A model generated the notes under the pieces. The model saw only the letters and a program-made list of their open reading frames with translations, was not told the origin of the DNA and ran no database searches. Positions 428 through 58,600 of a DNA stretch of 64,000 nt are shown here, in pieces. Numbering within the stretch: the first letter of the stretch is position 1; each line of letters starts with the position of its first letter. The DNA comes from Escherichia coli (GTDB taxonomy: Bacteria > Pseudomonadota > Gammaproteobacteria > Enterobacterales > Enterobacteriaceae): NCBI RefSeq assembly GCF_017348835.2, contig NZ_CP071375.1; one strand, given 5' to 3'. Position numbers and translations under genes: made by a program.

Positions 428-988
428 ATGAACGTGAGTAAATATGTCGCTATCTTTTCCTTTGTTTTTATTCAGTTAATCAGCGTTGGTAAAGTTTTTG
501 CTAACGCAGATGAGTGGATGACAACGTTTAGAGAAAATATTGCACAAACCTGGCAACAGCCTGAACATTATGATTTATATATTCCTGCCATCACCTGGCA
601 TGCACGTTTCGCTTACGACAAAGAAAAAACCGATCGCTATAACGAGCGACCGTGGGGTGGCGGTTTTGGCCTGTCGCGTTGGGATGAAAAAGGAAACTGG
701 CATGGCCTGTATGCCATGGCATTTAAGGACTCGTGGAACAAATGGGAACCGATTGCCGGATACGGATGGGAAAGTACCTGGCGACCGCTGGCGGATGAAA
801 ATTTTCATTTAGGTCTGGGATTCACCGCTGGCGTAACGGCACGCGATAACTGGAATTACATCCCTCTCCCGGTTCTACTGCCATTGGCCTCCGTGGGTTA
901 TGGTCCAGTGACTTTTCAGATGACCTACATTCCGGGTACCTACAACAATGGCAATGTGTACTTTGCCTGGATGCGCTTTCAGTTTTGA
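428..988 (+). CDS. pagP: Lipid A palmitoyltransferase PagP (outer-membrane beta-barrel)
   Basis: ORF 404..988 translation matches PagP; start moved to the internal ATG at 428 (MNVSKYV...), giving 186 aa with an N-terminal signal peptide. Confidence 0.9.
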
Positions 989-1162
989 GACAAATGAAGT
1001 TTTAGTAAATTCTTTAAAATCAATCACTAAAATAATTAACATCAAAAATAACGCGACTTTTATCACTTTTTAGTGAAGTTGCACTGGACAAAGCGTACCA
1101 CAATTGGTGTACTGGTAACCGACACAGCATTTGTGTCTATTTTTCATGTAAAGGTAATTTTG

Positions 1163-1372
1163 ATGTCTAAGATTAAAGGTAACGTTAAGTGGTTTAATGA
1201 GTCCAAAGGATTCGGTTTCATTACTCCGGAAGACGGCAGCAAAGACGTGTTCGTACACTTCTCTGCAATCCAGACTAATGGTTTTAAAACTCTTGCTGAA
1301 GGTCAGCGCGTAGAGTTCGAAATCACTAACGGTGCCAAAGGCCCTTCTGCTGCAAACGTAATCGCTCTGTAA
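1163..1372 (+). CDS. cspE: Cold-shock-domain protein CspE
   Basis: C-terminal 69 aa of ORF 1073..1372 ([20 protein letters not shown]...) is a CspA-family protein; ATG at 1163. Confidence 0.93.
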
Positions 1373-1392
1373 GATACGTCAGCAAGAATTCA

Positions 1393-1420
1393 AAACCCGC
1401 TTAATCAGCGGGTTTTTTTT
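1393..1420. terminator. Rho-independent terminator between convergent cspE and crcB
   Basis: GC stem aaacccgc/gcgggttt with loop, followed by an 8-T run on the + strand. Confidence 0.8.
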
Positions 1421-30554: not shown

Positions 30555-30717
30555 AGAAAAAAGAGGGTAGCAGCGTTAACTGCTACCCTCGAAGATTGTT
30601 ACCCAGCGTATTGCGGTTTTCAGGCCCGATGGGGAACGACCATCAGGCGTATAGTCTGTCCGTGCTACGTAACAATCGAGAGGGCTAGAATTTCCGCCCC
30701 TGGTTCTTGTAATTAGT
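30555..30717 (-). ncRNA. sroC: SroC sRNA, processed from the gltI-gltJ spacer (GcvB sponge)
   Basis: Position between gltI and gltJ with an intrinsic terminator at its 3' end; boundaries placed from remembered K-12 layout, not computed. Confidence 0.55.
30556..30592 (-). terminator. Rho-independent terminator/attenuator after gltI (3' end of sroC)
   Basis: Minus-strand hairpin gagggtagcag..ctgctaccctc followed by a U6 run (A6 on + at 30556-30561). Confidence 0.8.
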
Positions 30718-37630: not shown

Positions 37631-37775
37631 CGACTTGCTCTTGCGAAATAGTAGCCAGGAATGCAGGGCGCATAGTGTAATGCTTTGCTGCCGTTGTGAC
37701 CAGTATGAGCGTTATCAGCCCTTAGGGGTAAAAATCCTGTAAACTTAAAGCATATTGCTAACAGGATGATTGACC

Positions 37776-38951
37776 ATGACAAATCAACCAACGGAAATTG
37801 CCATTGTCGGCGGAGGAATGGTCGGCGGCGCACTGGCGCTGGGGCTGGCACAGCACGGATTTTCGGTAACGGTGATCGAGCACGCAGAACCTGCACCGTT
37901 TATCGCTGACAGCCAGCCGGATGTGCGGATCTCGGCGATCAGCGCGGCTTCGGTATCATTGCTTAAAGGGTTAGGGGTCTGGGATGCAGTACAGGCTATG
38001 CGTTGCCATCCTTACCGCAGACTGGAAACGTGGGAGTGGGAAACGGCGCATGTGGTGTTTGATGCTGCTGAACTAAAGCTGCCGCTGCTTGGCTACATGG
38101 TGGAAAACACTGTCCTGCAACAGGCGCTGTGGCAGGCGCTGGAAGCGCATCCGAAAGTAACGTTACGTGTGCCAGGCTCGCTGATTGCATTACATCGAGA
38201 TAATGATCTTCAGGAGCTGGAACTGAAGGGCGGTGAAACGATCCGCGCGAAGCTGGTGATTGGTGCCGACGGCGCAAATTCGCAGGTGCGGCAGATGGCG
38301 GGAATTGGCGTTCATGCCTGGCAGTATGCGCAGTCGTGCATGTTGATTAGCGTCCAGTGCGAGAACGATCCCGGCGATAGCACCTGGCAGCAATTTACTC
38401 CGGACGGACCGCGTGCGTTTCTGCCGTTGTTTGATAACTGGGCATCGCTGGTGTGGTATGACTCTCCGGCGCGTATTCGCCAGTTGCAGAATATGAATAT
38501 GGCACAGCTCCAGGCGGAAATCGCGAAGCATTTCCCGTCGCGTCTGGGGTACGTTACACCGCTTGCCACTGGTGCGTTTCCGCTGACGCGTCGCCATGCG
38601 TTGCAGTATGTGCAGCCAGGGCTTGCGCTGGTGGGCGATGCCGCGCATACCATCCATCCGCTGGCGGGGCAGGGGGTGAATCTTGGTTATCGTGATGTCG
38701 ATGCCCTGATTGATGTTCTGGTGAATGCCCGCAGCTACGGCGAAGCGTGGGCCAGTTATCCTGTCCTCAAGCGTTACCAGATGCGGCGCATGGCGGATAA
38801 CTTCATTATGCAGAGCGGTATGGATCTGTTTTATGCCGGATTCAGTAATAATCTGCCGCCGCTGCGTTTTGTGCGTAATCTTGGTTTGATGGCGGCGGAG
38901 CGTGCTGGCGTGTTGAAACGTCAGGCGCTGAAATATGCGTTAGGGTTGTAG
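37776..38951 (+). CDS. ubiF: 2-octaprenyl-3-methyl-6-methoxy-1,4-benzoquinol hydroxylase (FAD monooxygenase)
   Basis: FAD-binding GGGMVGG motif; start at MTNQPTEIAIVGGG (391 aa). Confidence 0.93.
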   Translation: MTNQPTEIAIVGGGMVGGALALGLAQHGFSVTVIEHAEPAPFIADSQPDVRISAISAASVSLLKGLGVWDAVQAMRCHPYRRLETWEWETAHVVFDAAELKLPLLGYMVENTVLQQALWQALEAHPKVTLRVPGSLIALHRDNDLQELELKGGETIRAKLVIGADGANSQVRQMAGIGVHAWQYAQSCMLISVQCENDPGDSTWQQFTPDGPRAFLPLFDNWASLVWYDSPARIRQLQNMNMAQLQAEIAKHFPSRLGYVTPLATGAFPLTRRHALQYVQPGLALVGDAAHTIHPLAGQGVNLGYRDVDALIDVLVNARSYGEAWASYPVLKRYQMRRMADNFIMQSGMDLFYAGFSNNLPPLRFVRNLGLMAAERAGVLKRQALKYALGL

Positions 38952-38961
38952 CCTTACAACA

Positions 38962-39050
38962 TTGCCGGATGCGTGCCAACCGTAGGTCGGATAAGACGCG
39001 GCAGCGTCGCATCCGACATTGAAGGATAAGACGTGTCAACATCGCATTCG
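38962..39050. repeat. REP/BIME cluster downstream of ubiF
   Basis: Tandem imperfect palindromes of the gccggatgcg / cgcatccgac type. Confidence 0.6.
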
Positions 39051-39071
39051 ACATTGAATGAACGCAGAAAA

Positions 39072-39100
39072 GCAAAAAGCTCGCCGAAGCGAGCTTTTTT
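39072..39100 (-). terminator. Rho-independent terminator of the tRNA operon
   Basis: Minus-strand hairpin aagctcgc..gcgagctt followed by a U-rich tract, directly downstream of glnX. Confidence 0.8.
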
Positions 39101-39104
39101 AATG

Positions 39105-39179
39105 TGGCTGGGGTACGAGGATTCGAACCTCGGAATGCCGGAATCAGAATCCGGTGCCTTACCGCTTGGCGATACCCCA
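39105..39179 (-). tRNA. glnX: tRNA-Gln (anticodon CUG)
   Basis: 75 nt; reverse complement reads UGGGGUAUCGCCAAGCGG...CCAGCCA; anticodon loop read by eye. Confidence 0.9.
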
Positions 39180-39216
39180 ACTGGGTGCACTTACAAGGTA
39201 AGCGTCTTGAATAAAT

Positions 39217-39291
39217 TGGCTGGGGTACGAGGATTCGAACCTCGGAATGCCGGAATCAGAATCCGGTGCCTTACCGCTTGGCGATACCCCA
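39217..39291 (-). tRNA. glnV: tRNA-Gln (anticodon CUG)
   Basis: Identical copy of the 39105..39179 gene. Confidence 0.9.
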
Positions 39292-39339
39292 ACAAATTGG
39301 TTTTTGAATTTGCCGAACATATTCGACACATTCAGAATT

Positions 39340-39416
39340 TGGTGGCTACGACGGGATTCGAACCTGTGACCCCATCATTATGAGTGATGTGCTCTAACCA
39401 ACTGAGCTACGTAGCC
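39340..39416 (-). tRNA. metU: Elongator tRNA-Met (anticodon CAU)
   Basis: 77 nt; GGCUACGUAGCUCAGUUGG...CCACCA; anticodon CAU. Confidence 0.9.
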
Positions 39417-39431
39417 AGATTGTTTCTTCGA

Positions 39432-39506
39432 TGGCTGGGGTACCTGGATTCGAACCAGGGAATGCCGGTATCAAAAACCGGTGCCTTACCGCTTGGCGAT
39501 ACCCCA
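39432..39506 (-). tRNA. glnW: tRNA-Gln (anticodon UUG)
   Basis: 75 nt; same scaffold as glnX but anticodon loop UUUUGAU. Confidence 0.9.
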
Positions 39507-39540
39507 ATAACCGGGCGGTGAACCGCTTACTCGAAGAAGA

Positions 39541-39615
39541 TGGCTGGGGTACCTGGATTCGAACCAGGGAATGCCGGTATCAAAAACCGGTGCCTTACCG
39601 CTTGGCGATACCCCA
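39541..39615 (-). tRNA. glnU: tRNA-Gln (anticodon UUG)
   Basis: Identical copy of the 39432..39506 gene. Confidence 0.9.
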
Positions 39616-39638
39616 TCCGTACAACGCTTTCTGGTGAA

Positions 39639-39723
39639 TGGTGCGGGAGGCGAGACTTGAACTCGCACACCTTGCGGCGCCAGAACCTAAATCTGGTGCG
39701 TCTACCAATTTCGCCACTCCCGC
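39639..39723 (-). tRNA. leuW: tRNA-Leu (anticodon UAG), long variable arm
   Basis: 85 nt; GCGGGAGUGGCGAAAUUGG...CCCGCACCA. Confidence 0.9.
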
Positions 39724-39731
39724 AAAAAAGA

Positions 39732-39808
39732 TGGTGGCTACGACGGGATTCGAACCTGTGACCCCATCATTATGAGTGATGTGCTCTAACCAACTGAGCT
39801 ACGTAGCC
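39732..39808 (-). tRNA. metT: Elongator tRNA-Met (anticodon CAU)
   Basis: 77 nt; identical copy of the 39340..39416 gene; first gene of the operon. Confidence 0.9.
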
Positions 39809-40150
39809 ATCTTTTTTTTCGCGATACCTTATCGGCGTTGCGGGGCGCATTATGCGTATAGAGCCTTGCAGCGTCAACCTCTTTTTCAAGGAAAATTGCT
39901 CGAAAGTGACTGTTTGGTTAGGTTGCGAACAGCGTGGCGCTATATTCGTCAATTATTGTTTACTTTGTGTTTTTTCCCACCCTACAGCCATTCTTTTGTC
40001 ATACAGGATGAAATTCGGAATTTAACAATAGTGGTGGGAAATTAATCTATGAAATACTGGCCTACAGTGATGAGTTGTCAAACAGTGATGTGGCAAACCC
40101 GGAACATTTCCTTACTGCATATCAGAATCAACAAGCACCTCAATAACTGA

Positions 40151-40178
40151 AACAGCCCCGGATTTCACCGGGGCTGTT
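40151..40178 (-). terminator. Hairpin terminator downstream of asnB
   Basis: aacagccccgg-atttca-ccggggctgtt perfect stem. Confidence 0.6.
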
Positions 40179-40187
40179 TCGCATTTC

Positions 40188-41852
40188 TTACTTATACGCC
40201 GACTGGTGAACACCAACCGCGCGACCAGACGGATCGTCCATTTTCTTGAACGCTTCATCCCATTCGATCGCTTTAGCGGAAGAACACGCGACGGAAGGAC
40301 CGCCCGGCACGCACTCAGCGGCACTCGGAAGCGGGAATAGTTCTTCAAAGATCTCCCGGTACAGATACGCTTCTTTTGAGGTCGGTGTGTTGTACGGGAA
40401 GCGGAAGCGGGCAGTTTCCAGCTGTTGATCAGAAACCTGCTGCGCCGCCACTTCTTTCAGGGTGTCGATCCAACTGTAACCGACGCCATCGGAGAACTGC
40501 TCTTTCTGCCGCCAGGCCACGCTTGCGGGCAGGTATGACTCAAAACATTCACGCAGGATGTGTTTTTCCATCTTGCCGTTACCGCACATTTTATCCTGCG
40601 GGTTAATGCGCATCGCCACGTCGAGGAATTTCTTGTCGAGGAACGGAACGCGTGCTTCCACGCCCCAGGCTGACATCGCTTTGTTGGCACGGGCGCAGTC
40701 ATACATATGCAGGGCCAGCAGTTTACGCACCGTCTCTTCATGCAGTTCTTTGGCATTCGGTGCTTTGTGGAAGTAAAGATAACCGCCAAACACTTCATCA
40801 GAACCTTCACCGGACAGCACCATTTTAATGCCCATCGCTTTGATCTTACGCGACATTAAATACATCGGTGTTGAAGCGCGAATAGTGGTCACATCATAGG
40901 TTTCGATGTGGTAAATCACGTCGCGGATGGCGTCCAGACCTTCCTGTACAGTGAAGTGAATTTCATGATGCACAGTGCCCAGATGGTTTGCCACTTCCTG
41001 GGCTGCTTTCAGATCCGGTGAACCCGGCAGACCTACAGCAAAGGAGTGTAACTGCGGCCACCAGGCTTCAGAGCGTTCCTGATCTTCCACGCGACGGGCT
41101 GCGTATTTCTTGGTGATAGCGGAAATAATTGAGGAATCCAGACCACCAGAAAGCAGCACACCGTAAGGCACATCAGACATCAGATGGCTTTTAACGGAAT
41201 CTTCCAGAGCCTGACGCAGCTCGTTTTTGTCGGTGACATTATCTTTCACCGCATCGTAGTCGAACCAGTCGCGATGATAATAAGAACGGATTTCGCCGTC
41301 CTGACTCCACAAATAGCTCCCCGCCGGGAACTCTTTAATCGTGCGGCATACCGGCACGAGGGCTTTCATTTCTGAGGCCACATACAGCTGACCATGTTCG
41401 TCATAGCCCATATACAGTGGGATGATCCCCAGATGGTCGCGACCAATCAGGTAGGCATCTTTTTCGCTGTCGTACAGGGCAAAGGCAAACATGCCCTGCA
41501 AGTCGTCGAGAAATTCCGGCCCTTTTTCCTGATACAGCGCGAGGATCACTTCACAGTCAGACCCTGTCTGGAACTGATAACGATCGCCGTATTCAGCGCG
41601 CAATGCCTGGTGATTGTAGATTTCACCGTTTACCGCCAGTACGTGGGTTTTTTGTTGGTTGTAGAGAGGTTGCGCCCCCGCGTTAACGTCAACAATTGAC
41701 AGACGTTCGTGGGCGAGAATGGCGTTATCACTGGCATAAATACCGGACCAGTCCGGGCCACGATGACGCATCAGGCGTGACAGCTCGAGTGCTTTCTTAC
41801 GCAGCTCAACTGCGTCTGTTTTGATATCGAATACGCCAAAAATTGAACACAT
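40188..41852 (-). CDS. asnB: Asparagine synthetase B (glutamine-hydrolysing)
   Basis: Start at the internal ATG 41852 (MCSIFGV..., Cys2 nucleophile, 554 aa); the ORF-track extension to 41933 is not used. Confidence 0.95.
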   Translation of the reverse strand: MCSIFGVFDIKTDAVELRKKALELSRLMRHRGPDWSGIYASDNAILAHERLSIVDVNAGAQPLYNQQKTHVLAVNGEIYNHQALRAEYGDRYQFQTGSDCEVILALYQEKGPEFLDDLQGMFAFALYDSEKDAYLIGRDHLGIIPLYMGYDEHGQLYVASEMKALVPVCRTIKEFPAGSYLWSQDGEIRSYYHRDWFDYDAVKDNVTDKNELRQALEDSVKSHLMSDVPYGVLLSGGLDSSIISAITKKYAARRVEDQERSEAWWPQLHSFAVGLPGSPDLKAAQEVANHLGTVHHEIHFTVQEGLDAIRDVIYHIETYDVTTIRASTPMYLMSRKIKAMGIKMVLSGEGSDEVFGGYLYFHKAPNAKELHEETVRKLLALHMYDCARANKAMSAWGVEARVPFLDKKFLDVAMRINPQDKMCGNGKMEKHILRECFESYLPASVAWRQKEQFSDGVGYSWIDTLKEVAAQQVSDQQLETARFRFPYNTPTSKEAYLYREIFEELFPLPSAAECVPGGPSVACSSAKAIEWDEAFKKMDDPSGRAVGVHQSAYK

Positions 41853-42098
41853 AACCTTCTCCGTTAACCTGGTATTTGTTGCTTGTTGTGTTTGCTTGTT
41901 TAAAAAAATGCCGCAAAGCAGCACTGTGCGCAAGCGATTTGGCGGTGAAAAAATAAAAAACGTAATGGTGATTGCTGATTTGTGAAAAAGGGGAGGGTGC
42001 GGTGATGTATTTATTAATGGATCGATAATTTTTGGCGGGTTTTATTGAATGTTTATATTTTACGGGGGCCAAATTGCTGACAAAGTGCGATTTGTTCA

Positions 42099-42198
42099 TG
42101 CCGGATGCGGCGTGAACGCCTTATTCGGCCTACAAAAGCATGAAAATTCAATAAATTGCAGGAGCTGCGTAGGCCTGATAAGCGTAGCGCATCAGGCA
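42099..42198. repeat. REP/BIME cluster between asnB and umpH
   Basis: tgccggatgcggcgtgaacgccttattcggcctac and gtaggcctgataagcgtagcgcatcaggca palindromic units. Confidence 0.7.
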
Positions 42199-57919: not shown

Positions 57920-58600
57920 CAAATGCGCCTATAAGGCTCTCTTACCAGCCGCGCCCTAACAGGCGCACACGATCTGACATTTGCATCCAACTTCGTTACT
58001 TACGGCCCGTAAACGGGCTGCCCGGATAGGGAATCGATAACTGCTCTACCATTTTATCCTCTTCAAGCTGGTGCTTTATGTAATCCTGTATCTTCGCCGT
58101 GTTCTTACCCACTGTATCGACGTAGTACCCTCTGCACCAGAACTCCCTGTTCCTGTATTTGAATTTCAAATCACCAAACTGCTCGTAAAGCATCAGACTG
58201 CTTTTCCCTTCCAGATATCCCATAAAGCCGGATACGCTCATTTTGGGCGGGATCTCCACAAGCATATGGATATGATCTGCACAGCATTCAGCTTCCAGAA
58301 TCCGTACACTTTTCCACTCACACAGCTTTCTCAAAATACTGCCTATTGCTCTACGCTTCTCTCTGTAGAACACCTGTCTTCGATATTTTGGCGCAAAAAC
58401 TATGTGATATTTACAGTTCCATCGGGTGTGCGCTAAGCTCTTTTCGTTCCCCATTGGGACCCCCTTTTGATTTCTTGTTTGACACTTGCAGTTGCCAGAC
58501 CGCAAGGTGTTTTAACAAATCAAAAGGGGTTTTAATAACTGGCTCAAAGCTGAAAGCTTTCCGGAACCCCCAGCCTAGCTGGGGGTTTTCTGTGCACAAG
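57900..58600 (-). mobile_element. IS200-family insertion sequence (IS200/IS605 family), boundaries approximate
   Basis: Contains an IS200-type Y1 transposase gene; the 5' side has a perfect hairpin (58566-58588) and a long-range inverted repeat (58461-58471 / 58527-58537) around the tnpA RBS; size is about 0.7 kb. Confidence 0.6.
57996..58454 (-). CDS. tnpA: IS200-type Y1 (HUH) transposase TnpA
   Basis: 152 aa from MGNEKSLAHTRWNCKYHIVFAPKYRR...; HUH motif HIHMLV and catalytic Tyr region; closely resembles Salmonella IS200 TnpA by recall. Confidence 0.85.
   Translation of the reverse strand: MGNEKSLAHTRWNCKYHIVFAPKYRRQVFYREKRRAIGSILRKLCEWKSVRILEAECCADHIHMLVEIPPKMSVSGFMGYLEGKSSLMLYEQFGDLKFKYRNREFWCRGYYVDTVGKNTAKIQDYIKHQLEEDKMVEQLSIPYPGSPFTGRK

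Follow-up and report, generated by a model that had tools for sequence, protein, structure and literature searches.

The seven-gene tRNA block on the minus strand at positions 39105-39808 of the window (the whole 64,000-nucleotide stretch of Escherichia coli DNA that was analysed) is, with near certainty, the metT operon, a unit made as one transcript and then processed, which is the sole source of four tRNAs and whose duplicate gene copies are probably kept homogeneous. The metT operon is a textbook locus that is already known, and the tRNA genes themselves hold nothing new. That the window is E. coli chromosome and the block the metT operon follows from the agreement of all seven genes with those of K-12, since the differences from that strain are confined to the spacers.

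Identity of the block

In E. coli K-12 MG1655 the corresponding stretch comprises glnX, glnV, metU, glnW, glnU, leuW and metT (b0664-b0673), running from ubiF to asnB. Gene order, strand and both neighbours are the same as in the window, the mature tRNA sequences are identical in seven of seven cases, and the promoter hexamers and the terminator are also identical. The two sequences differ by two 1-base indels and one substitution, all of them in spacers; the T-run between metT and leuW is 1 nt shorter in the window, and the spacer between metU and glnV is 1 nt longer and has one C/T change. Of 5426 complete E. coli genomes, 5424 gave a match to a 1201-bp query around the block, nine of them at 100%, and the annotation in the matched genomes lists one tRNA-Leu, two tRNA-Met and four tRNA-Gln genes adjoining ubiF. 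The flanking open reading frames of the window, at 37770-38951 on the plus strand and 40188-41933 on the minus strand, are named ubiF and asnB in the annotated matches.

ARAGORN, run on the whole 64-kb window as a check, called exactly seven tRNA genes, all on the minus strand and spanning 39105-39808, and Rfam gave the same seven. The sequence-only reading of this DNA, which had described a seven-gene tRNA operon at exactly these coordinates with three identical duplicate pairs, elongator tRNA-Met genes and one interleaved tRNA-Leu(UAG) (39639-39723 by ARAGORN), is therefore borne out in each of these points. The features of the operon, in the direction of transcription, are as follows.

39878-39900, minus strand: A/T-rich tract AATTTTCCTTGAAAAAGAGG immediately upstream of the -35 hexamer (from sequence; its AAAAA run is invariant in six species)
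39872-39877, minus strand: -35 hexamer TTGACG (promoter scan, 10/12 matches, 17-nt spacer; TTGAC invariant in six species)
39849-39854, minus strand: -10 hexamer CATAAT (promoter scan; GCATAAT invariant in six species)
39809-39848, minus strand: GC-rich discriminator GCGCCCC, predicted start at about 39841 and 5' leader of about 33 nt (from sequence)
39732-39808, minus strand: metT, elongator tRNA-Met(CAU), 77 nt (ARAGORN and Rfam; identical to MG1655 metT)
39639-39723, minus strand: leuW, tRNA-Leu(UAG), 85 nt (ARAGORN and Rfam; identical to MG1655 leuW)
39541-39615, minus strand: glnU, tRNA-Gln(UUG), 75 nt (ARAGORN and Rfam; identical to MG1655 glnU)
39432-39506, minus strand: glnW, tRNA-Gln(UUG), exact copy of glnU (ARAGORN, Rfam and MG1655 comparison)
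39340-39416, minus strand: metU, elongator tRNA-Met(CAU), exact copy of metT (ARAGORN, Rfam and MG1655 comparison)
39217-39291, minus strand: glnV, tRNA-Gln(CUG), 75 nt (ARAGORN, Rfam and MG1655 comparison)
39105-39179, minus strand: glnX, tRNA-Gln(CUG), exact copy of glnV (ARAGORN, Rfam and MG1655 comparison)
39063-39104, minus strand: A/U-rich linker CAUUA, terminator hairpin at 39099-39074 (AAAAAGCUCGC-UUCG-GCGAGCUUUUU) and T-rich tail (terminator scan and fold)

The order along the minus strand is thus Met(CAU), Leu(UAG), Gln(UUG) twice, Met(CAU) and Gln(CUG) twice. Against the Rfam tRNA model RF00005, which has a gathering score of 29, all seven genes score 57.6-71.1 bits (E-values of 8e-10 to 1.5e-13), and the 3' CCA is encoded in the gene in seven of seven tRNAs. 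Identity within the duplicate pairs is complete, at 77/77 positions for Met, 75/75 for Gln(UUG) and 75/75 for Gln(CUG), and the two Gln species differ from each other at 7 of 75 positions, these being the wobble base and three stem pairs that are altered on both sides. The six spacers (8, 23, 34, 15, 48 and 37 nt) are mutually unrelated, and the identity between copies ends within a few bases of the gene borders. Exact repeats of 75-77 nt together with seven covariance-model matches in 704 bp cannot have arisen by chance.

Elongator tRNA-Met is told from the initiator tRNA-fMet and from tRNA-Ile2(CAU) by a Watson-Crick pair at 1-72 and by an anticodon stem whose base lacks three consecutive G-C pairs. 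As read from the sequence, metT and metU pair G1 with C72, and their anticodon stem is rich in A/U (CAUCA/UGAUG), which, along with their identity to MG1655 metT and metU, supports the assignment of both genes as elongators. In the literature, too, metT and metU are named as the two elongator tRNA-Met genes, identical to each other (PMC6265465).

Promoter, leader and terminator

The sequence TTGACG-17-CATAAT at 39877-39849 is the only promoter-like site that the promoter scan found on the minus strand in 38800-40300. The A/T-rich tract AATTTTCCTTGAAAAAGAGG that precedes it presumably resembles the UP-element consensus and would act as an UP element. When the upstream regions of E. coli, K. aerogenes, K. 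pneumoniae, E. hormaechei, Y. pseudotuberculosis and P. alcalifaciens are aligned, a 33-nt stretch that takes in the -10 hexamer and the early part of the leader (GCATAATGCGCCCCGCAACGCCGAT-AAGGT, 39855-39823) is invariant across all six species, which represent three enterobacterial families. Its part GCGCCCCGCAACGCCGAT-AAGGT (~25 nt after GCATAAT) is invariant in the six species while the flanks drift. Transcription probably starts near 39841.

At the other end of the operon, the hairpin AAAAAGCUCGC-UUCG-GCGAGCUUUUU begins 5 nt past the CCA of glnX and is followed by GCUUUUCU. The stem is of 11 bp with a UUCG loop, and on the minus strand it folds at -17.9 kcal/mol (z = -4.5), with none of 200 shuffles folding as well. 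It is retained in four other species (of Klebsiella, Enterobacter and Yersinia), where two pairs have changed in a compensatory manner, and in experimental work the metT terminator has been handled as Rho-independent (PMC2241853). These findings sustain the earlier claim that a strong terminator ends the operon. Folded on the plus strand, the same segment gives -17.1 kcal/mol (z -2.9), again as an equivalent hairpin followed by Ts. The terminator may therefore work both ways, also stopping the converging ubiF transcript, as the A5/T5 flanks make the stem symmetric.

Two further elements lie on either side of the operon. Directly after the asnB stop (40188) there is a 14-bp G+C-rich hairpin at 40148-40181, which the scan placed on the plus strand; this is probably the asnB terminator, which would protect the promoter of the tRNA operon against read-through. 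On the other side, the gap from the ubiF stop to the operon's terminator contains two tandem 35-nt palindromic units at 38989-39058 (within 38955-39070), consisting of GGATAAGACGCGGCAGCGTCGCATCCGACATTGAA and an 86% copy. The 116-nt segment 38955-39070 is a dispersed repeat of the REP/BIME type, since a sensitive genome search places it at a median of 22 sites per E. coli genome. Within the 64-kb window, no second copy of the REP-like palindrome turned up when as many as 3 mismatches were allowed.

Transcription, processing and essentiality

The seven genes would be expressed as follows. RNA polymerase with sigma-70 would start at the strong promoter TTGACG-17-CATAAT and make the seven tRNAs as one precursor, with the transcript ending at the hairpin and U-run 5 nt past glnX. 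RNase E would take off the 3' terminator hairpin and separate the last genes, RNase P would next cut at the mature 5' ends and so remove the leader, and RNases T, PH and D would trim the 3' ends, where the CCA is already encoded. The duplicate genes would raise gene dosage.

Much of this is known from K-12. On northern blots the seven tRNAs are seen together in one full-length transcript, which accumulates in RNase mutants, and processing intermediates that retain a 5' non-coding region have been reported (PMC2241853). In the same work the Rho-independent terminator was found to inhibit RNase P until it is cut off, mainly by RNase E, which also splits off the last genes, and RNase P was found to cut the upstream tRNAs at their mature 5' ends (PMC2241853). 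The finishing of the 3' ends by RNases T, PH and D is likewise described in the K-12 literature. As the sequence of the window is near-identical to that of K-12, the single transcript and its processing by RNase E and RNase P are expected to carry over.

The view that the seven genes form one operon, as had been proposed from the sequence, is supported by the sole promoter-like site upstream, by spacers of 8-48 nt and by the seven-tRNA transcript (PMC2241853). It is very unlikely that they are instead separate transcription units, or at least two sub-operons with internal promoters. Identical duplicates could in principle have promoters of their own, and several sizes of processing intermediates are seen on northern blots (PMC2241853). 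The spacers, however, are too short for most promoters, the scan gave a single minus-strand promoter-like site, which lies ahead of metT, and in RNase mutants the full-length seven-tRNA transcript builds up, the intermediates being accounted for by cleavage with RNase P and RNase E (PMC2241853).

The single operon is also one that the cell cannot lose. A systematic study found the unit undeletable and noted that it holds all genes for tRNA-Met(CAU, elongator), tRNA-Leu(UAG), tRNA-Gln(UUG) and tRNA-Gln(CUG) (PMC11480407), and deletion has been achieved only with a plasmid copy present (PMC6265465). The metT operon cannot be deleted because every gene copy for these four tRNA species sits in it.

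Age and homogeneity of the duplicate genes

The same seven-gene order, in the same neighbourhood of miaB, ubiF, the tRNAs and asnB, is found in Klebsiella and Enterobacter. Yersinia has six genes at the same chromosomal place, and Providencia has six genes with other neighbours. All four genera share the order Met-Leu-Gln-Gln-Met-Gln(-Gln) and have kept the promoter and leader core, with Providencia the exception among these orthologues for the terminator hairpin and for the ubiF and asnB neighbours. The P. alcalifaciens operon (NZ_OU659131.1, locus 2290-2903) adjoins nagC, and its last Gln gene is of the UUG type, so that this operon is without a Gln(CUG) gene.

Within a species the paralogue pairs are identical while the spacers vary in both length and sequence. 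In Klebsiella both Met genes share one and the same change relative to E. coli, and in Yersinia both Met copies share 4 differences, and both Gln(UUG) copies 8, from those of E. coli. This pattern, drawn from six genomes, suggests that the paralogues evolve in concert, through gene conversion and selection on the mature tRNA. The copies would stay identical through such selection together with gene conversion between them, and strong parallel selection could add to gene conversion in keeping them so. There are exceptions to the identity within species. In E. hormaechei (CP103578.1, locus 2501-2575) the final Gln(CUG) gene departs from its partner at 10 of 75 positions, for the most part through paired stem changes, and Providencia paralogue copies differ from each other at 1-3 positions.

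Identity could also be explained if the duplicates had arisen by very recent tandem duplication in the E. coli lineage and for that reason only were still the same. This is most improbable. The copies are indeed 100% identical, and duplications and deletions of Gln units occur in E. coli today, but the seven-gene order is also that of Klebsiella and Enterobacter, the six-gene form is found in Yersinia and Providencia, and the spacers beside paired genes are unrelated in sequence and length. The species-specific substitutions that paralogues share point to homogenisation rather than recency. Single copies in close relatives and identical flanks of the copies were both looked for, and neither holds. 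Given an order common to the relatives and unrelated spacers beside the paired genes, the duplications are therefore old, and concerted evolution is the preferred account of their identity.

Gene-number variants, unusual assemblies and a suppressor allele

Gene number was surveyed among the E. coli genomes with junction-specific queries, for which a match at ≥80% of their length requires a rearranged operon. A single Gln(CUG) gene is present in 152 genomes, which agrees with the 160 genomes in which the 1201-bp query reaches <80% coverage, and between 8 and about 92 genomes have just one Gln(UUG) gene (from the junction query and the listing of match spread). Three Gln(CUG) genes occur in at most 29 genomes and three Gln(UUG) genes in at most 35, with one eight-gene example of each. 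The uncorrected figure of 731 genomes for the single-Gln(UUG) form was rejected, as it consists mostly of two joined pieces that span ~284 bp in normal two-copy genomes. Operons of six or eight genes thus make up a few percent of E. coli assemblies, with 0H24, WP8-S18-CRE-02, M8 and HS30-1 as example strains.

One strain with a single Gln(CUG) gene has lost exactly one 112-bp Gln(CUG) unit. The variation in gene number fits unequal crossing-over between identical copies, in which the homology between copies would allow Gln units to be added or removed, and part of the copy-number variants may be assembly errors.

Two assemblies depart further from the usual arrangement. CEA224S (NZ_CP166080.1, GCF_051122395.1) is without a 705-bp block that corresponds to the seven genes within 1 nt (window 39105-39809), so that at about position 2705 of the locus the leader is fused to the terminator, and the gene-exact boundaries of this loss are odd. 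Its lysT cluster is intact, and there is no other copy of the operon in the assembly. Consistent with this one case, 5424 genomes are matched by queries that take in the flanks, but 5423 by those lying wholly inside the operon. MC1061 (NZ_CP195014.1, GCF_053194095.1) has only one Met and one Gln(CUG) gene between asnB and ubiF (locus 2377-2575). This remnant, in which leuW, glnU and glnW are missing, is the outcome expected from collapsing the metT/metU and glnV/glnX repeats. Because the unit is essential, the losses in CEA224S and MC1061 are most likely assembly errors.

A different kind of variant is seen in the lab strain TUM23335 (NZ_CP188145.1, locus 406-480), where a plus-strand C-to-T change at the equivalent of window position 39145 turns the anticodon CUG into CUA. 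This is a supE-type amber suppressor in the promoter-distal Gln(CUG) copy, which is glnX by MG1655 naming, although the allele is usually written glnV44. The suppressor gene is left unannotated by PGAP and is labelled tRNA-Pyl by ARAGORN.

Overlapping open reading frames and the question of a mobile origin

Both strands of the block have overlapping open reading frames, 56-116 aa in length, which the sequence-only reading had dismissed as artefacts. That judgement stands, with no Pfam match in nine frames and no coding sequence in MG1655. None of the nine overlapping frames reaches the Pfam threshold, the best having E = 0.14 and 12.8 bits against a cut-off of 26.9. No coding sequence is annotated across the block in MG1655 or among the E. 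coli records listed, bar one 'hypothetical protein', and the record with this annotation also carries an extra ~430 bp. That at least one of the frames (for example 39033-39383, plus strand, 116 aa, or 39540-39761, plus strand, 73 aa) is truly protein-coding is thus extremely unlikely; the frames do exist on both strands, but tRNA genes explain the whole of this DNA, and the G+C-rich stems of such genes tend to keep reading frames open.

Least credible of all, to the point of being negligible, is a horizontal origin of the block as a tRNA array of a phage or plasmid. In its favour, large phages commonly have tRNA clusters, some of their genes for tRNA-Gln and tRNA-Leu reach 85-91% identity to individual genes of the block, and PLSDB holds 'plasmids' that carry the operon. 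Against it, the best phage record covers at most 23% of the block, the operon is present in 5424/5426 E. coli genomes at one conserved position that is kept from E. coli to Yersinia, and, of five PLSDB records examined, four have the chromosomal synteny miaB-ubiF-tRNAs-asnB and one (Providencia) has other chromosomal neighbours. A plasmid origin was rejected, as the PLSDB records examined look like mislabelled pieces of chromosome or whole chromosomes. The operon-bearing records, which include LR134125.1, CP125156.1, CP103578.1 and NZ_AP028969.1, range from 280 kb to 5.4 Mb; a sixth, CP043024.1 (28.8 kb), is an unpolished, error-rich contig that is 93% identical, with many indels and one annotated feature. 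A phage origin was rejected as well, the matches being to single tRNAs only. These matches, to glnU/W and leuW, come from large Sinorhizobium, Erwinia and Klebsiella phages (e.g., PV764938.1, OP586623.1 and MT939253.1).

Significance and other elements of the window

The metT operon is the sole source in E. coli of elongator tRNA-Met, of tRNA-Leu(UAG) and of both tRNA-Gln species. The classic supE amber suppressor lies in it as well, and the operon serves as a textbook case of how tRNAs are processed. The main value of the present analysis lies in correct annotation, and recognising the tRNA block clears several false calls of open reading frames. The side results may help genome curators, as the operon has six, seven or eight genes among E. 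coli assemblies and the standard pipeline does not annotate suppressor alleles. In at least two 'complete' assemblies the essential metT locus is collapsed or missing, so that it can serve as a convenient check of assembly quality.

Elsewhere in the window, four Rfam families scored above the gathering score. These were sroC at 30555-30717 (minus strand), the Hfq-binding sRNA STnc490 at 58464-58587 (minus strand), a cspA-type thermoregulator at 972-1420 (plus strand) and ES036 at 42134-42176 (plus strand), all of which are expected in that part of the E. coli chromosome.

Comparison with known tRNA operons

The promoter of tyrT is the standard example of a stable-RNA promoter under stringent control. 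In MG1655 tyrT-tyrV, the promoter and leader contain ATGCGCCCCGC-N3-CCGATAAGG, and metT has the same core with N4, the shared core running from the end of the -10 hexamer via the discriminator into the early leader. As in metT, the tyrT promoter drives tandem identical tRNA genes. The two operons differ in their tRNAs, in chromosomal position and in the -35 region, and the gap within the motif is 1 nt shorter in tyrT. The core, with a gap of either N3 or N4, is absent at lysT. Because of the GC-rich discriminator and the core shared with tyrT, the metT promoter would be expected to come under growth-rate and stringent control, as a member of the stable-RNA class; our literature search found no open-access paper measuring the regulation or start site of this promoter. 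It is conceivable, but rather unlikely, that the transcribed CCGATAAGG is a separate cis-element beyond the GC-rich discriminator, such as a signal for initial transcription or for pausing, a site for a regulator, or an element that directs processing.

With regard to processing, the closest parallel drawn here is the secG-leuU transcript of E. coli, in which a Rho-independent terminator also blocks RNase P until RNase E removes it (PMC2241853). The secG-leuU transcript differs in that it combines an mRNA with one tRNA and that RNase G participates in its processing, whereas removal of the metT terminator appeared to be independent of RNase G (PMC2241853).
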